A stretch of 64,000 nt of DNA from Candidatus Nitrosomaritimum khambatensis (GTDB lineage Archaea > Thermoproteota > Nitrososphaeria > Nitrososphaerales > Nitrosopumilaceae). Positions 1,476 to 55,493 of the stretch are shown one piece after another. How positions within the stretch are numbered: the stretch's first letter is position 1; every line of letters starts with the position of its first letter. The notes under the pieces are model-generated. The model searched no databases, was not told the origin of the DNA, and saw only the letters and a program-made list of their open reading frames with translations. The stretch spans positions 3,085 through 67,084 of the forward strand of contig WVWY01000001.1 in assembly GCA_011773785.1 (NCBI GenBank), given 5' to 3'. Position numbers and translations under genes: made by a program.

Positions 1476-2429
1476 TTATTCTAGTTGATACAAATCAAGT
1501 TTGCAATCAATACTGCATTCTGGATTTGACCAATCAAGTGTATCTTCTTGAGGAATTACACCTAGTGGATCATAGTTGTCAAACTTTGTCATTCCTTGAA
1601 CTGCAGATACCATTACAATTTTTGATTCATCTGCAGATGATGAGGACAAATCTACTTGGGAGTTATTTTCATTGAGAACTCCACTTGTTAGATTGGAAAT
1701 AGAGTTCAAAACTCCTACTGGAATGTTATTGCCACCTGCTACATACAAGATTGAGCGTTTTACTGCGTTAGGAGATGTGTTTCCGTAAAGCATTTTGAGT
1801 GAGTCTCTGAGGGATTCTTCAATGTGCTGGCCCTCTTTGCTTGCAGTCAAGATGTTGGTTTCAGCTGAAATATCTGAATTTTCAAGGGCACCTACTACAT
1901 GCAAAATTGCAGAATTTGCAATTCCATAACAGTCCTTTGGACTAAGGTCTGGGTTGCTTTCTAAAAGTGAGTCATTATCCAAAACTACTGTGCAGTCTGA
2001 ATCTGCTCTAAGTCGTTTAAGAGAAACGCCTGAATTGAAAATTCTGTCTTTTTCATACTTGAATGGCATGATTGCAAAGGAAACTAAGCCTACCTCAGAT
2101 TCCTTACAAATTTCTGACACAACTGGAGATATAGCAGAACCTGCTTTTCCTGCCAAGTTGGTCATGAGAATAACTGTGGAATAGCGTGAAATGGTTGATT
2201 TTATCTGGTCTGCAACTTTGTAAGTTGAGCCTCTAATCAATTGAATTGAAGGATTAACTACTGAGTCAGTCGAGATTGCTATTGTCTGGCAGTCTGCCTG
2301 GAGGTCTTTTTGATCGTTACTAATTATTAGACAATCAGAGTTTACAATGTCTTTTGCTTGGGTTGCAAGTTTTGAGCCTGCTCCTCCTAAACCAACAATT
2401 AAGATCGGTGATTTGACTTGAAAACTCAT
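1476..2429 (-). CDS. Divergent FtsZ/tubulin-family protein with a degenerate GTP-binding signature
   Basis: The N-terminal 'ILIVGLGGAGSKLA' resembles the FtsZ 'IGVGGGGxNA' motif, and 'VVLDNDSLLE' resembles FtsZ 'xxPNDxLL'. The tubulin signature GGGTG(S/T)G is replaced by 'NLAGKAGSA'. Confidence 0.6.
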   Translation of the reverse strand: MSFQVKSPILIVGLGGAGSKLATQAKDIVNSDCLIISNDQKDLQADCQTIAISTDSVVNPSIQLIRGSTYKVADQIKSTISRYSTVILMTNLAGKAGSAISPVVSEICKESEVGLVSFAIMPFKYEKDRIFNSGVSLKRLRADSDCTVVLDNDSLLESNPDLSPKDCYGIANSAILHVVGALENSDISAETNILTASKEGQHIEESLRDSLKMLYGNTSPNAVKRSILYVAGGNNIPVGVLNSISNLTSGVLNENNSQVDLSSSSADESKIVMVSAVQGMTKFDNYDPLGVIPQEDTLDWSNPECSIDCKLDLYQLE

Positions 2430-2502
2430 TCTATGAGGTAATTGATTATTTGGATAAAAAACCTTCTTACGTTTTTTTAATCAAATTTCAGATCTAAAAA
2501 AT

Positions 2503-3771
2503 TTAACAAGCGATCCTACCTATTAGGCTGTGGTTTGTTGCCTTGACGATCTCAACTTTGTGTATCTGACCAATCTCGACATCTTGATCCACAAAGATAG
2601 ATTTGTATGCAAAGTTTCTTCCCTTGATTCCCTCATCGGTGTTTTCATTAAACAAAACTTTGCCCTTCCAGCCGATCCATTTTTTATTGCTATCGTTTGA
2701 GATTTGGTTTGTCAAATCAAAAATTATCTTGCTCCTTCTCTTTACTTCTGAAACATCAATTTGCTCCCATTCAGCAGCTTCTGTTCCAGGTCTTGCGCTA
2801 TATCGTGAGAGATTAACAATGTCTGGCTTTGTCTTTTTTAGCAAACTTACAGTTTTTTCAAAGTCCTCTTTTGTTTCTGATGGAAATCCAACTATTATGT
2901 CAGTTGATATTGTAAATTGTGGGAATCTCTCTCTTACTTTGGTAACTACGTCTCTAAATGTCTCAGCAGTGTGTCCTCTTTTCATATCATTGAGAACCTT
3001 GTTACTTCCGCTCTGAACAGGAACATGTAGAAACTTGTAGACCTTGTCATTATCAAAAGAATCAATCAATTTGTCTTTAATGCGAACCATGTACATTGGG
3101 TTCATCATTCCAACTCTTATTCTAAAGTCATCGGGAATCTCTGAAACTGTATTAACTAATGTAGGCAAGTCTGTTCCAATGTCAAAACCATAGCATCCAT
3201 TATCAGTTGATGTTAGCCAAACCTCCTTGCACCCATCTTTGATTTCAGTTTCAACTTGCCTTACAATGTCTCCTATTCTGTAACTTTGGAGGTCTCCTTT
3301 AGCTAATTTTGTCTGGCAAAATGTGCACTCACTCATACATCCACTTGCAATCTCTATGATTCCCACTGCAGGATTCAACCTCACCTTTGGAAGGCCAACC
3401 TTTGAAACATCAGAGTCCTCCAAGGCAATCTGTCTAGTTCCTTTTAGAGTTGAGTCAATTACCTGCAAAGTCTTTCCAAGAGAATTTGGCCCCAACATGG
3501 ATGCGTTTTCTGTAAATTTTTCTACAGTTGATTTTTCAGCCTTTGGCAGGCAACCAGCTACTACTAGTGGTTTTTCTTTAAGGGATTTTATTCTGTAAAT
3601 CATTTTGTTTGCAGTTGCATCTTTAACAGAGCATGTTACAATTACATTCAAGTCAGATTGGTCAGAACTATCAACTAGAGTATGACCTCCATTTGCAATT
3701 AGTCCTGAAATCATCTCTGAATCTGAAAAACTTGCAGAGCATCCGTATGCCTCTACAAAGATCTTTGCCAT
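2503..3771 (-). CDS. Radical-SAM methylthiotransferase, archaeal MiaB/MtaB (CDKAL1-like) family
   Basis: N-terminal 'KIFVEAYGCSASFSDSE' (UPF0004 domain), radical SAM 'CMSECTFCQTK', and a C-terminal TRAM-like region. Confidence 0.85.
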   Translation of the reverse strand: MAKIFVEAYGCSASFSDSEMISGLIANGGHTLVDSSDQSDLNVIVTCSVKDATANKMIYRIKSLKEKPLVVAGCLPKAEKSTVEKFTENASMLGPNSLGKTLQVIDSTLKGTRQIALEDSDVSKVGLPKVRLNPAVGIIEIASGCMSECTFCQTKLAKGDLQSYRIGDIVRQVETEIKDGCKEVWLTSTDNGCYGFDIGTDLPTLVNTVSEIPDDFRIRVGMMNPMYMVRIKDKLIDSFDNDKVYKFLHVPVQSGSNKVLNDMKRGHTAETFRDVVTKVRERFPQFTISTDIIVGFPSETKEDFEKTVSLLKKTKPDIVNLSRYSARPGTEAAEWEQIDVSEVKRRSKIIFDLTNQISNDSNKKWIGWKGKVLFNENTDEGIKGRNFAYKSIFVDQDVEIGQIHKVEIVKATNHSLIGRIAC

Positions 3772-24261: not shown

Positions 24262-25218
24262 ATGCTCGTCCAAGATACATCCAAGCTCAAAGAAGACATC
24301 TTACGTCTAAAAAAAGAAAAAGACGTAGTAATTCTTGCGCATAATTATCAAATTCCAGACATTCAAGATATTGCTGATTTCACAGGCGACTCACTTGGAC
24401 TCTCAAGACAAGCAGCCAAAGTTCCTCAAAAAACAATCTTGTTTTGCGGAGTCCACTTTATGGCAGAAACAGCAAAGATTATCAGCCCACAAAAAAAGGT
24501 ACTAATTCCAGATTTGGAAGCAGGATGTTCATTATCTGATTCTATTACTCTTGATGAATTAAAAAATTGGAAAAAACAACATCCAAAAGCAATAGCAGTA
24601 GGATATGTCAACACTACAGCAGAAATAAAATCTGAATTAGATTACTGTTGCACATCTTCAAATGCAGTAAATGTTGTTAATGCAATTCCTAAAGACAAAG
24701 AGATTTTGTTTTTGCCTGACATGTTTTTGGGCTCTTATGTTGCCAAAGTTACTGGAAGAAAAAATATGCACATTTGGGCAGGTGAATGTCATGTGCATGC
24801 AGGAATCACTCCTGAAGATGTAACTAAAAAATTAGATTCGCTTAAAGATTCTGAATTTGTAATACATCCAGAATGTAGCTGCACCACACCAATGCTTTAT
24901 GATCTTGCTTCTGGTAGCTTTGATGATAGAAAAGTTTCCATTCTTTCAACTGAAGGAATGCTAAATCGCGTTAAAGATTCTAAAGCAAAGAACTTTGTTG
25001 TTGCAACTGAAACTGGAATTTTATATCGAATGAGAAAACAAAATCCCGACAAAAACTTTGTTCCAGCTTCAGACAAAGCCGAATGCCAACACATGAAGAT
25101 GAATACTCTAGAAAAGGTCTATGACTCTATTGTTCAAGACAAGTATGAAGTTACAGTACCCAAAGAGATTGCCGATAAAGCCCGATTAGCAATTGAACGC
25201 ATGCTTGCCATTAGTTAA
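24262..25218 (+). CDS. nadA: Quinolinate synthase
   Basis: 'ILAHNYQIPDIQDIADFTGDSLGLS', 'VHFMAETAKI', 'YVNTTAEIK', 'HPEC' and 'ATETGILYRM'. Confidence 0.9.
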   Translation: MLVQDTSKLKEDILRLKKEKDVVILAHNYQIPDIQDIADFTGDSLGLSRQAAKVPQKTILFCGVHFMAETAKIISPQKKVLIPDLEAGCSLSDSITLDELKNWKKQHPKAIAVGYVNTTAEIKSELDYCCTSSNAVNVVNAIPKDKEILFLPDMFLGSYVAKVTGRKNMHIWAGECHVHAGITPEDVTKKLDSLKDSEFVIHPECSCTTPMLYDLASGSFDDRKVSILSTEGMLNRVKDSKAKNFVVATETGILYRMRKQNPDKNFVPASDKAECQHMKMNTLEKVYDSIVQDKYEVTVPKEIADKARLAIERMLAIS

Positions 25219-25335
25219 TCTGCGAGTCCAACCATCTATTCATAATTTCATTTTTTCACAAATATGAGGAACTTTGCGATCAAACCAAGCACAAACTAGA
25301 CAATACTTAATAATTTTTTATTATTAACGTAAAGA

Positions 25336-26964
25336 GTGAACATAAGAAAACTCCCTACTATTATGTTAATCTTGGGCGTTGCGTTTACCAGTCTTATTTG
25401 GTATGGATTCATTTTTGAAGAAAGAAAGTTAGCAAACAATGAATTCGATTCTAGGACCGAAAATCTGGTTGACTCTGTAGTCAACCGACTCTCTCATCAT
25501 GAACAAGTCCTTATGGGTGCCAAAGGTCTCTTTCTTTCTTCAGAGGAGGTAACGTATGATGAATGGAAAGAATTCATTACTTCTCAGGATATCAGGCAAA
25601 GATTTCCTGGAATTCAAGGAGTTGGTTACATTGAGTCTGTTACCTCTGATTTACAAAAAACTGAATTGAAAAACAAAATGGAAAGCTATGGAATTGAAGA
25701 TTTCTCAATTCATCCAGAAGGAATTCGCGATGAATACTATCCCGTAATCTATCTTCATCCAATGGATGTAAGAAATCAAAAGGCTTTAGGATATGATGTT
25801 TATACACAGGAAACTAGACGTGAGGCTGTAGATTTGTCAGCAACTACGGGACAAACGACAATTACTGGAAAGATAATCTTGGTTCAAGAAGATGAATCTC
25901 TGGGAAAAATTCAAAATGGCTTTTTGATGTTAATGCCAATATATGAAAATGAATCACAAACTAGTGACCCAAAAGGATTTGTTTATGCTGTATTTAGGAT
26001 GGATGATTTTATTTACGGATTGTTTGATTTGGGAGAATTTGAAAATCTAAACATGAAAATTTATGATGTACAACAATCAGAAGATAACCTTTTTTTTAAT
26101 GCCCACGCTAGTACAAATTCACTAATTTCAAACGAGTTTTCTGCAATTTCAAGAGCGACTCTTGATAATAGAGACTGGCTATTCACCTTTGAAGGCACTT
26201 CATTATATTCGACCTCTTATGCTCTTCCAATACTCATTCCTATTGTAGGATATTCTTTTTCCTTTTTGTTATTTTACCTCTTTTCACTTTCTCAAAAAAC
26301 TCTGGATCTTAAACGAAGAGAGTTAGAAGCAATTAAGGTGTCCAAGGCCCAAGACAAAGTAATTGAACAACAAAATCAAGCCCTGCTCAAATTTACAGAC
26401 CAAAATGACAACATTTGTGTTTGTTCGATTGATATTGTAGACTCTACCAAAATCACCGCAAAATTGTCGGATGCTCAAACAAGCCGACTTTATGGCAAGT
26501 TTCTTAACTTTGCAGCAGGAATTATTGAGTCATATCGTGGTGTCGTGGTTAAAAACGTTGGAGATGCTATCCTGTTTTATTTTGAATGTCCTAAAACCTA
26601 CAGAAAGAGTGAATTTATCAGAGTGCTTGATTGCTGTATGGATTTAATCGAACAACAAGATGAACTAAATCAACGATTAAAAGAATCCGAACTTCCTTCA
26701 TTAGATTACAGAATCAGTGCTACATATGGTTCTGTCATGATTGCAAAAATTCTAAAATTTGGAACACCTGATATCTTTGGTTCTACTGTAAATCAAACCT
26801 TCAAAATTAACAGATTAGCCAAGAAAAACGGACTTGTTGTTTCAGATCTGTTATATGAAAAAGTAAAAACTACAAGTGAATACAATTTTGTTGAAGTGGA
26901 TAAAGCGATACCAAAAGAATTTGGATATTCAGTTTACCATGTTTCAAAAAATACATCTAATTGA
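25336..26964 (+). CDS. Membrane CHASE-domain sensor fused to a class III adenylate/guanylate cyclase domain
   Basis: TM1 'LPTIMLILGVAFTSLIWYGFIF'. CHASE-like 'RLSHHEQVLMGAKGLF...EWKEFITSQDIRQRFPGIQGVGYI...YPVIYLHP'. TM2 'ILIPIVGYSFSFLLFYLFSL', then a coiled coil. Cyclase motifs: 'VCSIDIVDSTKIT', 'KNVGDAILFYF', 'GSTVNQTFKINRLA'. Confidence 0.75.
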   Translation: MNIRKLPTIMLILGVAFTSLIWYGFIFEERKLANNEFDSRTENLVDSVVNRLSHHEQVLMGAKGLFLSSEEVTYDEWKEFITSQDIRQRFPGIQGVGYIESVTSDLQKTELKNKMESYGIEDFSIHPEGIRDEYYPVIYLHPMDVRNQKALGYDVYTQETRREAVDLSATTGQTTITGKIILVQEDESLGKIQNGFLMLMPIYENESQTSDPKGFVYAVFRMDDFIYGLFDLGEFENLNMKIYDVQQSEDNLFFNAHASTNSLISNEFSAISRATLDNRDWLFTFEGTSLYSTSYALPILIPIVGYSFSFLLFYLFSLSQKTLDLKRRELEAIKVSKAQDKVIEQQNQALLKFTDQNDNICVCSIDIVDSTKITAKLSDAQTSRLYGKFLNFAAGIIESYRGVVVKNVGDAILFYFECPKTYRKSEFIRVLDCCMDLIEQQDELNQRLKESELPSLDYRISATYGSVMIAKILKFGTPDIFGSTVNQTFKINRLAKKNGLVVSDLLYEKVKTTSEYNFVEVDKAIPKEFGYSVYHVSKNTSN

Positions 26965-27076
26965 AAACTGGATTTAAACACGAATTCTATTATCTAAAAA
27001 TTGAAATTAGTTTTTTACGAAAATGAAAATCTAGTCTCACTAAGGTATTATTTGGGTAGTTTGAGCCTAAATTAGA

Positions 27077-27478
27077 TTGGTTGGATTATTTGGTTTAGGC
27101 TCTAAAGACCCAGAGAAAAAAGGTATTTCCAAAAAAAAGAAAGAACTGCGAAAGTTAGTAAAGGAAAAAAAATATGATTCAGCCCTGAGAATCGGTACAG
27201 ACATTCTCAAAAAAGTACCACACGAAAATGATGTCTTGTTCATTATGGGGGGTATTAATTTTACCAAAGGAAAATACCGCACAGCAATTTCTTATTTTGA
27301 AAAATCCCTAGAAATTGCTACCCATGATGTAGATGTTCTTGTTTCAAATGCCGAAGCTAATTACAGAATTGGAAATTTCACCAGAGCAACTCAGTGTTGT
27401 GATACAATCAAAGAAATTGATTCTAAAAATAAATTCGTAGCAGAAATGCTAAAAAAAATAGAAGACGCAAAAAAGTAA
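27077..27478 (+). CDS. TPR-repeat protein
   Basis: TTG start. TPR-like units: 'YDSALRIGTDILKKVPHENDVLF', 'KGKYRTAISYFEKSLEI', 'IGNFTRATQCCDTIKEIDSKN'. Confidence 0.6.
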   Translation: MVGLFGLGSKDPEKKGISKKKKELRKLVKEKKYDSALRIGTDILKKVPHENDVLFIMGGINFTKGKYRTAISYFEKSLEIATHDVDVLVSNAEANYRIGNFTRATQCCDTIKEIDSKNKFVAEMLKKIEDAKK

Positions 27479-55022: not shown

Positions 55023-55493
55023 ATGTACAAAAAAATTCTTGTTCCTCATGCAGGCACTTCTGCAGGCGATTTAGCACTTAAGCATGCAATTCATATTGCA
55101 AAATCATCAGAATCAGAAATAATTTTGCTTCATGTTTTAGAGGACTTTCCACATGTTCCAGTTCTTTCCCTTCATTCCTCACAGGCAGCCAAACTCAAAA
55201 GAGAATTTGCGCAAATAACAAAAGACATGAAACAAGTAATGGAAGATGAAATGTCAAAACGAGCACTAATGTGTCAAAAACATGGTATTAAATCCAGTTT
55301 AAAGGTTGTAACGGGACTCGCAGCAGAAGAAATTTTGAAAATCATAAAAAACCAAAAAATGGATTTGGTTGTAATGGCAAAAAGAAGAAAACTCAAGGGA
55401 ATCAAAAGTCTTTTGTCTTTAGGGAGTGTATCAAGAAAGATTGTTGAGAATACTTCATGTCCAGTTCTAATGATAGATGCAGAAAAAAAATGA
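55023..55493 (+). CDS. Universal stress protein (UspA family)
   Basis: 'KKILVPHAGTSAGDLALKHA', 'ILLHV', 'DLVVMAKRR' and 'LGSVSRKIVENTSCPVLMI'. Confidence 0.85.
   Translation: MYKKILVPHAGTSAGDLALKHAIHIAKSSESEIILLHVLEDFPHVPVLSLHSSQAAKLKREFAQITKDMKQVMEDEMSKRALMCQKHGIKSSLKVVTGLAAEEILKIIKNQKMDLVVMAKRRKLKGIKSLLSLGSVSRKIVENTSCPVLMIDAEKK

Follow-up and report, generated by a model that had tools for sequence, protein, structure and literature searches.

The window analysed here, a stretch of 64,000 nucleotides from the genome of Candidatus Nitrosomaritimum khambatensis, carries on its forward strand a gene (25336..26964) for a membrane receptor in which a CHASE sensor domain is followed by a class III-type nucleotide cyclase domain. 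The locus raises the question of whether this receptor makes a cyclic nucleotide, and which one, and how the gene came to lie where it does. The evidence as a whole rather favors a CHASE-gated receptor with a Lys variant of the class III-type domain, a variant typical of ammonia-oxidising archaea, that is most likely an adenylate cyclase. Bacterial transmembrane (TM)-CHASE-TM-class III adenylate cyclases are known, for example cyanobacterial CyaA, and the archaeal receptor has the same domain order, topology, and presumed logic, in which an extracellular ligand acts on a cytoplasmic cyclase dimer. It differs from them in being archaeal, in being of the Lys-type (K490), in scoring only 42 bits against the Pfam cyclase profile PF00211, and in having a CHASE half closest to Nitrosopumilaceae histidine kinases (approximately 48% identity) rather than to bacterial cyclases. 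The architecture is thus of a known kind; what is new is the catalytic variant, the missing receptor for the product, the insertion of a single gene, and an apparent transfer from archaea to bacteria.

Architecture and sensor domain

The gene is real and correctly delimited. The open reading frame (ORF) encodes 542 amino acids from a GTG start, with an alternative ATG at codon 10; cluster P0002 of the whole-protein search is the same receptor called from codon 10, and the orthologues conserve the residues before that codon. A Kyte-Doolittle scan places TM1 at approximately residues 8-28 (25357..25419, forward strand, as are all features of the gene) and TM2 at approximately residues 296-318 (26221..26289). 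The roughly 265 extracytoplasmic residues between these hydrophobic segments (approximately 29-295) include the CHASE core (residues 71-254; 25546..26097), and this region between the two TM helices probably faces outward. TM2 is followed by a cytoplasmic helical linker (approximately residues 319-350; 26290..26385) and then by the class III cyclase homology domain of the Lys-type (residues 351-538; 26386..26949). An AlphaFold2 model built on 21 orthologues (predicted local distance difference test, pLDDT, 77.8; predicted template modelling score 0.50) consists of a helix begun by TM1 (6-68), an alpha/beta domain (74-287), an unbroken helix begun by TM2 and continuing through the linker (296-348), and a second alpha/beta domain (351-538). 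The linker may be a coiled coil, as suggested by the long model helix and by the presence of residues 349-353 in a predicted dimer interface.

The CHASE profile (PF03924) matches residues 71-254 over profile positions 2-189 of 189 with 167.2 bits against a cut-off of 25, and Guanylate_cyc (PF00211) matches residues 356-523 with 42 bits against a cut-off of 21.9. A first-pass annotation made from the sequence had proposed the order TM1, CHASE, TM2, and cyclase and had suggested these two profiles as a check; both score above their curated cut-offs, and the hidden Markov models (HMMs), the hydropathy scan, the AlphaFold2 model, and the Foldseek comparisons agree with the proposed layout. The motifs cited in that annotation are present (SIDIVDST at 364-371, NVGDAI at 407-412, and VNQTFKINR at 485-493). 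It had also called the organism an archaeal ammonia oxidiser, and the genome does encode an archaeal AmoA (384 bits), while the named homologues of the receptor are from Nitrosopumilus or Nitrosopumilaceae. An NCBIfam match of the receptor to LipJ, at 11 bits, was judged meaningless.

The CHASE domain was reportedly defined by two papers of 2001. The best solved match of the sensor half is PcrK of Xanthomonas campestris (6k62), with a sequence E-value of 8.7e-12 and, in Foldseek, a TM-score of 0.79 against the PcrK CHASE domain at a root-mean-square deviation of 3.4-4.1 Å over 263-280 columns. The sensor folds are alike, with identity of only approximately 21-22%. PcrK is a CHASE histidine kinase reported, in the available text of PMC6944256, to sense cytokinin, whereas the output of the archaeal receptor is a cyclase domain. 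The likeness between the two sensors is one of sequence and fold only, and says nothing on cytokinin binding by the archaeal sensor.

Catalytic residues of the cyclase domain

In Foldseek, the C-terminal domain matches CyaC, Cya2, CyaB, and RhGC with TM-scores of 0.66-0.81, and with a probability of 1.00 to 1wc1, 2w01, 3r5g, and 6sir. The fold is therefore common to the receptor and to the solved class III cyclases (CyaC of Spirulina, 1wc1/1wc0; Cya2 of Synechocystis, 2w01; CyaB of Pseudomonas, 3r5g; and the catalytic domains of RhGC, 5oyh and 6sir), although identity is approximately 17-21%. The first metal-binding Asp, D366 (26431..26433), and the second, D410, align with the canonical metal Asp residues of these enzymes, and N486 aligns with the canonical transition-state Asn. 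In the segment K406-N-V-G-D410 (26551..26565), the adenine-type Lys precedes the second metal Asp by four residues, and CyaC has a K-x-x-G-D motif at the aligned positions. The second adenine-type residue, D479 (26770..26772), stands seven residues before the Asn and lies at the predicted dimer interface. Where the solved enzymes have the transition-state Arg (Asn+4), the receptor has Lys: K490 stands opposite the canonical Arg in all five alignments that HMMER displayed against solved enzymes of the class (Cya2, RhGC, two chains of CyaC, and a phytochrome-cyclase chimera). The assignment of N486 to K490 (26791..26805) draws on these alignments, on conservation, and on a dimer model described below.

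Both metal-binding Asp residues named in the first-pass annotation are upheld by this comparison, as is the Asn of the Asn/Arg pair it proposed; its Arg, R493 (26812..26814), is non-canonical. Among the 21 fusion orthologues, which are 36-80% identical, D366, K406, G409, D410, D479, K490, and N492 are invariant, while residue 486 is Asn in 20 and Ser in one and residue 493 is Arg in 20. When the cyclase domain alone was searched exhaustively, 2063 representative clusters matched at E≤1e-3, of which 285 also passed E≤1e-10 and 57 passed E≤1e-30. In the best 150 of these representatives, the metal positions 366 and 410 are Asp in 140 and 146, the adenine-type positions 406 and 479 are Lys in 148 and Asp in 146, and position 486 is Asn in 139. 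The canonical Arg position, 490, is Lys in 144 and Arg in 2, and the complete D/K/D/D/N/K signature occurs in 123. Two residues past the Lys, 143 of the 150 likewise have the Asn that is N492 in the receptor. Position 493 varies, with Ser in 53, Arg in 25, His in 18, and Lys in 13. These counts indicate that Lys is fixed at the canonical Arg position across a large subfamily and that R493 is no conserved substitute. Judged from its aligned residues, the receptor is best filed in this divergent Lys-type subfamily, with five of the six canonical catalytic residues, rather than as a canonical class III enzyme.

In class III cyclases, the residues four before the second metal Asp and seven before the Asn indicate the substrate, with a Lys/Asp or Lys/Thr pair for ATP and a Glu/Cys pair for GTP. 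An inspection of these positions had been suggested with the first-pass annotation; K406 and D479 are of the adenylate type in 21 of 21 orthologues. Because the receptor retains both metal Asp residues, the Asn, and a Lys/Asp pair of the adenine type, it is predicted to be a ligand-gated adenylate cyclase. The findings that the annotation had named as telling against it, a lack of profile matches or missing key residues, were not what emerged, since the HMM scores are significant and most of the catalytic residues are present. Its description of the domain as catalytically competent is plausible on the same residues, but would hold for an Arg-to-Lys variant.

Predicted dimer and proposed mechanism

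Residues 330-542 were modelled as a homodimer together with two ATP and two Mg, and the model scored 0.74, against 0.00 for the best control. Among proteins of solved structure, 20 of 30 that are pairs of one chain and 1 of 23 that are single chains come up to the mark of 0.74. Separate runs share at least 80% of contacts, and the pLDDT of the partner is at least 79. The predicted interface is the head-to-tail arrangement of class III enzymes, as in the solved cyclases, and consists of residues 349-353, 370-372, 406-409, 479, 485-486, and 490, with modelled contacts across the subunits between T371 and K490 and between S370/T371 and N486. The catalytic residues of the two chains oppose each other in the model, and R493 is not listed in the interface. 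Because cyclase dimers have already been solved, the score may reflect resemblance to those structures and does not independently prove the pairing.

If the residues act as aligned, the protein would be a homodimeric receptor adenylate cyclase that crosses the membrane once inward and once outward. An extracellular ligand would bind the CHASE domain between TM1 and TM2, and the resulting change would reach the class III domain by way of TM2 and the unbroken helix 296-348. The cyclase domains would pair head-to-tail with two active sites at their interface, where D366 and D410 of one chain would hold the metals and K406, D479, N486, and K490 of the other would bind ATP and stabilize the transition state in the formation of 3',5'-cyclic adenosine monophosphate (cAMP). 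In this scheme K490 would stand in for the canonical Arg.

Lys-type cyclases in the genome and the lineage

The genome of the window (G000; 1.37 Mb, 89% complete) has four cyclase-domain genes, all with Lys at the canonical Arg position (N+4): the CHASE fusion, soluble proteins of 217 and 236 amino acids, and a 588-amino-acid dCache_1-HAMP-cyclase identified by its Pfam domains (G000:C36:79807-81573). CHASE domains occur in two genes, the fusion and a CHASE histidine kinase that is also 542 amino acids long. Across 401 sampled genomes of the phylum, with the Lys-type domain counted at E≤1e-15, the domain is present in 48 of 56 genomes of the family to which the window belongs and in both genomes of one sister family. 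It is found in 0 of 1 genome of another family in the order and in 0 of 342 genomes of families outside the order. Because the domain occurs in 48 of 56 family genomes, class III-type cyclases are common in this lineage, not rare; CHASE histidine kinases are also widespread in Nitrosopumilaceae.

Class III cyclases and CHASE receptors had been described in the first-pass annotation as rare and unstudied in archaea. The first adjective does not hold for this lineage, but the second does: according to the available text of a 2023 review, no protein for the synthesis, degradation, or binding of 3',5'-cAMP has been characterized from an archaeon (PMC10249747). A search of the literature on adenylate cyclase in Nitrosopumilus found no study of these proteins. 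In the portions available, a comparative-genomics paper on sponge Thaumarchaeota goes no further than a count of COG2114 (PMC9289680), the 'AC' of N. maritimus (YP_001583100) appears as a member of a tree (PMC2535757), and no archaeal CHASE-cyclase is described in PMC6944256 or PMC11442133.

The nearest relatives of the cyclase domain outside the fusion are the dCache-HAMP-cyclases, which are 47-53% identical over that domain. The Nitrosopumilaceae dCache_1-HAMP-cyclases, of approximately 580-600 amino acids, share the Lys-type signature with the fusion; they differ in that their sensor is dCache plus HAMP and in being near-universal and syntenic, whereas the CHASE fusion is rare and mobile. 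The Lys-type domain is also found fused to a receiver domain in proteins of 360-410 amino acids (P0208-P0230) and at the C-terminus of giant proteins of 1070-1750 amino acids (P0254, P0270, P0284, P0287, P0310, and P0321), one of which is named as from Nitrososphaera sp. A run of unknown bases, translated as X, lies approximately 400 bp from the gene of the 217-amino-acid cyclase on G000:C24 (L002:2500-3009) and may be a gap in the assembly.

Receivers of the signal and alternative functions

Several points weigh against an active adenylate cyclase. The PF00211 score of 42 bits is modest. The canonical transition-state Arg is missing, Lys at the N+4 position may not sustain full turnover, and a search of the literature found no paper on Lys replacing this Arg. 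A search for cyclic nucleoside monophosphate (cNMP) effectors of the CAP or GAF type, which had been suggested with the first-pass annotation, gave none: neither PF00027 (cNMP_binding) nor GAF, GAF_2, or a class II phosphodiesterase was found in the 89% complete genome, and none of 151 family genomes, of which 147 are of high quality, gave a PF00027 match. A cAMP pathway in this genome is thus one with no recognised receiver or degrader, and any downstream receptor would presumably not be of the CAP type. PycC profiles of PADLOC, moreover, match all four paralogues, and three of these score above Pfam Guanylate_cyc.

The missing Arg, which is present at the aligned position in all five displayed solved cyclases, and the missing cAMP receiver and phosphodiesterase could both be explained if the cyclase domain were weak or dead and served as a module for dimerization or as a nucleotide-binding regulatory module. 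Pseudo-enzymes usually lose several catalytic residues, however, while here five of six canonical positions are kept and the Lys itself is strongly constrained (21 of 21 orthologues, with the whole signature in 123 of 150 representatives). Lys also retains the positive charge, and in the dimer model it is predicted to lie at the active-site interface facing the S370-T371 loop. The fusion has in addition been kept intact after its apparent transfer to Verrucomicrobiota, bacteria with cNMP receptors; cNMP-binding proteins were found in four of four Verrucomicrobial genomes checked. Loss of activity therefore seems rather improbable.

An active cyclase could instead make a product other than cAMP, such as cyclic guanosine monophosphate, a cyclic pyrimidine as made by PycC of the Pycsar systems, or another signal with a receptor of unrecognised type, a reading to which the lack of a cNMP-binding or GAF receptor also lends weight. 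PycC is likewise a divergent class III-like domain, and its profiles outscore Pfam for the 217-amino-acid protein (54 against 40.7 bits), the 236-amino-acid protein (39 against 26), and the Cache-cyclase (52.5 against 20-22.6). For the fusion the order is reversed, with 42 bits for Pfam and 36 for PycC (best match 36.2 bits, E 1e-9, from PADLOC profiles with no curated cut-off). According to the available text of PMC11224242, the specificity residues of PycC vary by clade, so that sequence rules are weak there, but the residues listed for the PycC clades differ from the Lys/Asp of the fusion. The receptor thus has an adenine-type pair in place of pyrimidine-selecting residues, and its adenine-specifying positions are nearly invariant across the subfamily and are not the Glu/Cys of guanylate cyclases. 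Pycsar also needs an adjoining cNMP-binding effector, while the neighbors of the fusion are nadA and a gene for a tetratricopeptide repeat (TPR) protein. The architecture is that of a ligand-gated receptor and not of a phage-triggered soluble cyclase. A different product is unlikely on this evidence, though slightly less so than an inactive domain, and an adenylate cyclase is still preferred.

Candidates for a receiver may lie elsewhere in the genome. A P-II gene (PF00543, 63 bits; G000:C36:81581-81907, equivalent to L004:2084-2407, reverse strand), outside the window, lies tail-to-tail with the dCache-HAMP-cyclase paralogue. Of 14 relatives examined, 5 also have these two genes side by side, and USP and DnaJ-like genes are found upstream of the dCache-HAMP-cyclase in approximately 10 of the 14. 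The genome has 13 USP-domain matches, including one in the window (55023-55475, forward strand; G000:C14:58107-58559); four further matches are tightly clustered at G000:C36:22515-25182. The cyanobacterial PII-like protein SbtB binds cAMP. The mycobacterial USP Rv1636 is also reported to bind cAMP, in the available text of PMC11107214. The P-II and USP neighbors are possible non-canonical receivers of the cyclase signal, to be taken as leads only.

Insertion and distribution of the fusion gene

The whole-protein search found 22 clusters with both CHASE and cyclase domains (P0001-P0022). The next-best matches are Nitrosopumilus CHASE histidine kinases, with approximately 48% identity over the N-terminal 60% of the receptor, followed by dCache-HAMP-cyclases with 51% identity over the C-terminal 39%. 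Among 301 species genomes of the family, a tally that includes five flagged as unpublished on which no claim depends, the full-length fusion is found only in the genome of the window, and a 70%-identical fragment, cut by the end of its contig, is found in a genome of another genus (G248). With 2 of 301 species genomes, this CHASE-cyclase fusion is rare.

The homology detected by blastn to the two closest loci of the same genus (L029 and L030) stops at approximately 25217-25220 and restarts at 27036; the extra segment is therefore approximately 1.8 kb (25221..27035), carries the receptor gene alone, and is read as a recent insertion. A search for sequencing runs listed no RNA data set for 25221-27035. 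In six of six genomes of the same genus examined, the insertion is absent and nadA is followed directly by the TPR gene approximately 85 bp away, within the order nadX-like, nadA, TPR, nadC, spt4, rpoE', and mrp, where all names except TPR come from reading the translations. In the window, the upstream flank is nadA (quinolinate synthase; 24262..25218, forward strand), again named from its translation and 87-96% identical in genomes of the same genus. The downstream flank is a gene for a small TPR protein (27077..27478, forward strand) that matches Pfam TPR_19 and other TPR models and is syntenic in relatives. The guanine-plus-cytosine (GC) content of the insert, 0.343, matches the 0.354 of the window. 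No transposase or integrase ORF was found in the insert, and a repeat scan found short AT-rich repeats only and no convincing terminal repeat. A 14-nucleotide inverted repeat in the noncoding ends of the insert (25243-25256 and 26996-27009; 93% complementary) is AT-rich and was set aside as probably due to chance.

The same insertion occurs in metagenome contigs of the same population (L105 and L106, 99.4-99.8%), and another relative (L121) has a 75%-identical orthologue in the same nad locus. Elsewhere, fusion orthologues are found in a C12-like region (L107 and L109), beside an orthologue of the 236-amino-acid cyclase (L104), and, in L098, next to tmk-like and HD genes, both named from their translations. 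The fusion thus occupies at least four loci within the family and is a patchy, mobile gene. In L104, a 57%-identical fusion (1788-3425) adjoins an orthologue of the 236-amino-acid soluble cyclase that is 92% identical (294-1010), so that two Lys-type cyclase genes are adjacent in that organism. The metagenome copy in L107 (L107:1062-2610, 65% identity) looks disrupted, with the match broken between residues 457 and 478 and an ORF of only 455 amino acids; either pseudogene formation or a faulty assembly could account for this.

Direction of transfer

In a scan of species genomes, the full-length orthologues numbered 11, with 36-39% identity, and all were in metagenome-assembled genomes labelled Verrucomicrobiota (Akkermansiaceae, Oceaniferula, and Verrucomicrobiales). 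The bacterial fusions are flanked by DUF1501, PPC, PLD, DUF748/AsmA, and SBF genes, with no match in the archaeal genome. The GC content of the fusion is 4.5-10.6 points below that of its flanks in 11 of 11 Verrucomicrobiota loci, and is also lower in three of three further metagenome loci, whereas in archaeal contigs it agrees with the flanks.

A first CHASE tree, made with every fourth histidine kinase and no outgroup, and from which L097 was left out by the domain-length filter, permitted a transfer from bacteria to archaea. The tree was rebuilt with 50 rows, every fifth histidine kinase, and 10 Verrucomicrobial CHASE domains as the root. In the rooted tree the outgroup split has support of 99/97, and the ingroup consists of all the Nitrosopumilaceae kinases and all the fusions. 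The bacterial fusions (100/100) nest inside the archaeal P0008-P0011 group (100/100 for the two together and 94/91 for the nesting). The contig of P0008 is archaeal, with flanking proteins 74-80% identical to proteins of the genome of the window. A tree of the cyclase domain was made from 61 rows, with every fourth Cache-cyclase and REC-cyclase protein taken. Loci of Nocardioides and other actinobacteria, with 21-30% identity over the cyclase domain only, fell below the domain-length filter and were kept out. In this tree the fusions are set apart by a starred branch (95/99) from the Cache, REC, and solo cyclases of archaea.

Because the bacterial fusions nest within the rooted CHASE tree, have a lower GC content than their bacterial flanks, and belong to a gene of patchy occurrence, the fusion appears to have passed from archaea to marine Verrucomicrobiota. 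The history can be read as a single formation of the fusion in Nitrosopumilaceae, a patchy spread there, and a passage of one branch to marine Verrucomicrobiota. The fusion would have arisen within Nitrosopumilaceae from the CHASE line of the histidine kinases of the family and a Lys-type cyclase domain. Three observations count against this history: the lower GC content could in part be specific to a gene for a membrane sensor; the cyclase-domain tree recovers every fusion group as a single clade but does not resolve how the three branch relative to one another, and its outgroup sits on a very long branch; and the monophyly of all fusions among the kinases is weak in the CHASE tree (81/34).

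A Verrucomicrobial origin followed by acquisition in Nitrosopumilaceae was allowed by the unrooted tree, and would agree with the position of the fusions on the outgroup side of the starred branch and with TM-CHASE-TM-cyclase being a known bacterial architecture. Rooting with bacterial outgroups, however, places the Verrucomicrobial clade within archaeal sequences, the low GC of the fusion is seen in the bacterial and not the archaeal loci, and both parent parts are near-universal in Nitrosopumilaceae. In four Verrucomicrobial genomes checked, the fusion scores 40-51 bits, against 89-105 bits for other cyclase matches in three and 33 bits for one further match, and it is the sole CHASE protein in three of the four. 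Among 201 genomes of this bacterial family, a CHASE protein of any kind is found in 18 and the fusion type in only 7. A bacterial origin is the least supported of the alternatives considered and is quite improbable, and transfer from the archaea remains the better reading.

Significance

Ammonia-oxidising archaea are among the most abundant microbes of the ocean. The analysis defines a conserved, lineage-typical cyclase subfamily with an apparently fixed Arg-to-Lys change, in a family with no classical receptor domain, and singles out concrete proteins for study: this receptor, the near-universal dCache paralogue, and the neighboring P-II and USP genes. Passage from archaea to bacteria is, to our knowledge, less commonly described than the reverse; the fusion is an apparent case in which a complete sensory receptor went from archaea to bacteria, and it offers a natural pair of hosts for ligand hunting. 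As a tentative and rather doubtful extension, the Lys-type domains may be where ammonia-oxidising archaea make a second messenger whose synthases have been missing, either cAMP or a nucleotide related to it, read by receptors other than CAP or GAF, with P-II and USP as candidates. On this view the CHASE fusion would act as a mobile "plug-in" sensor, carried from locus to locus in Nitrosopumilaceae and across domains into marine Verrucomicrobiota. If this is true, it implies that the archaea and marine Verrucomicrobiota heed the same extracellular cue.

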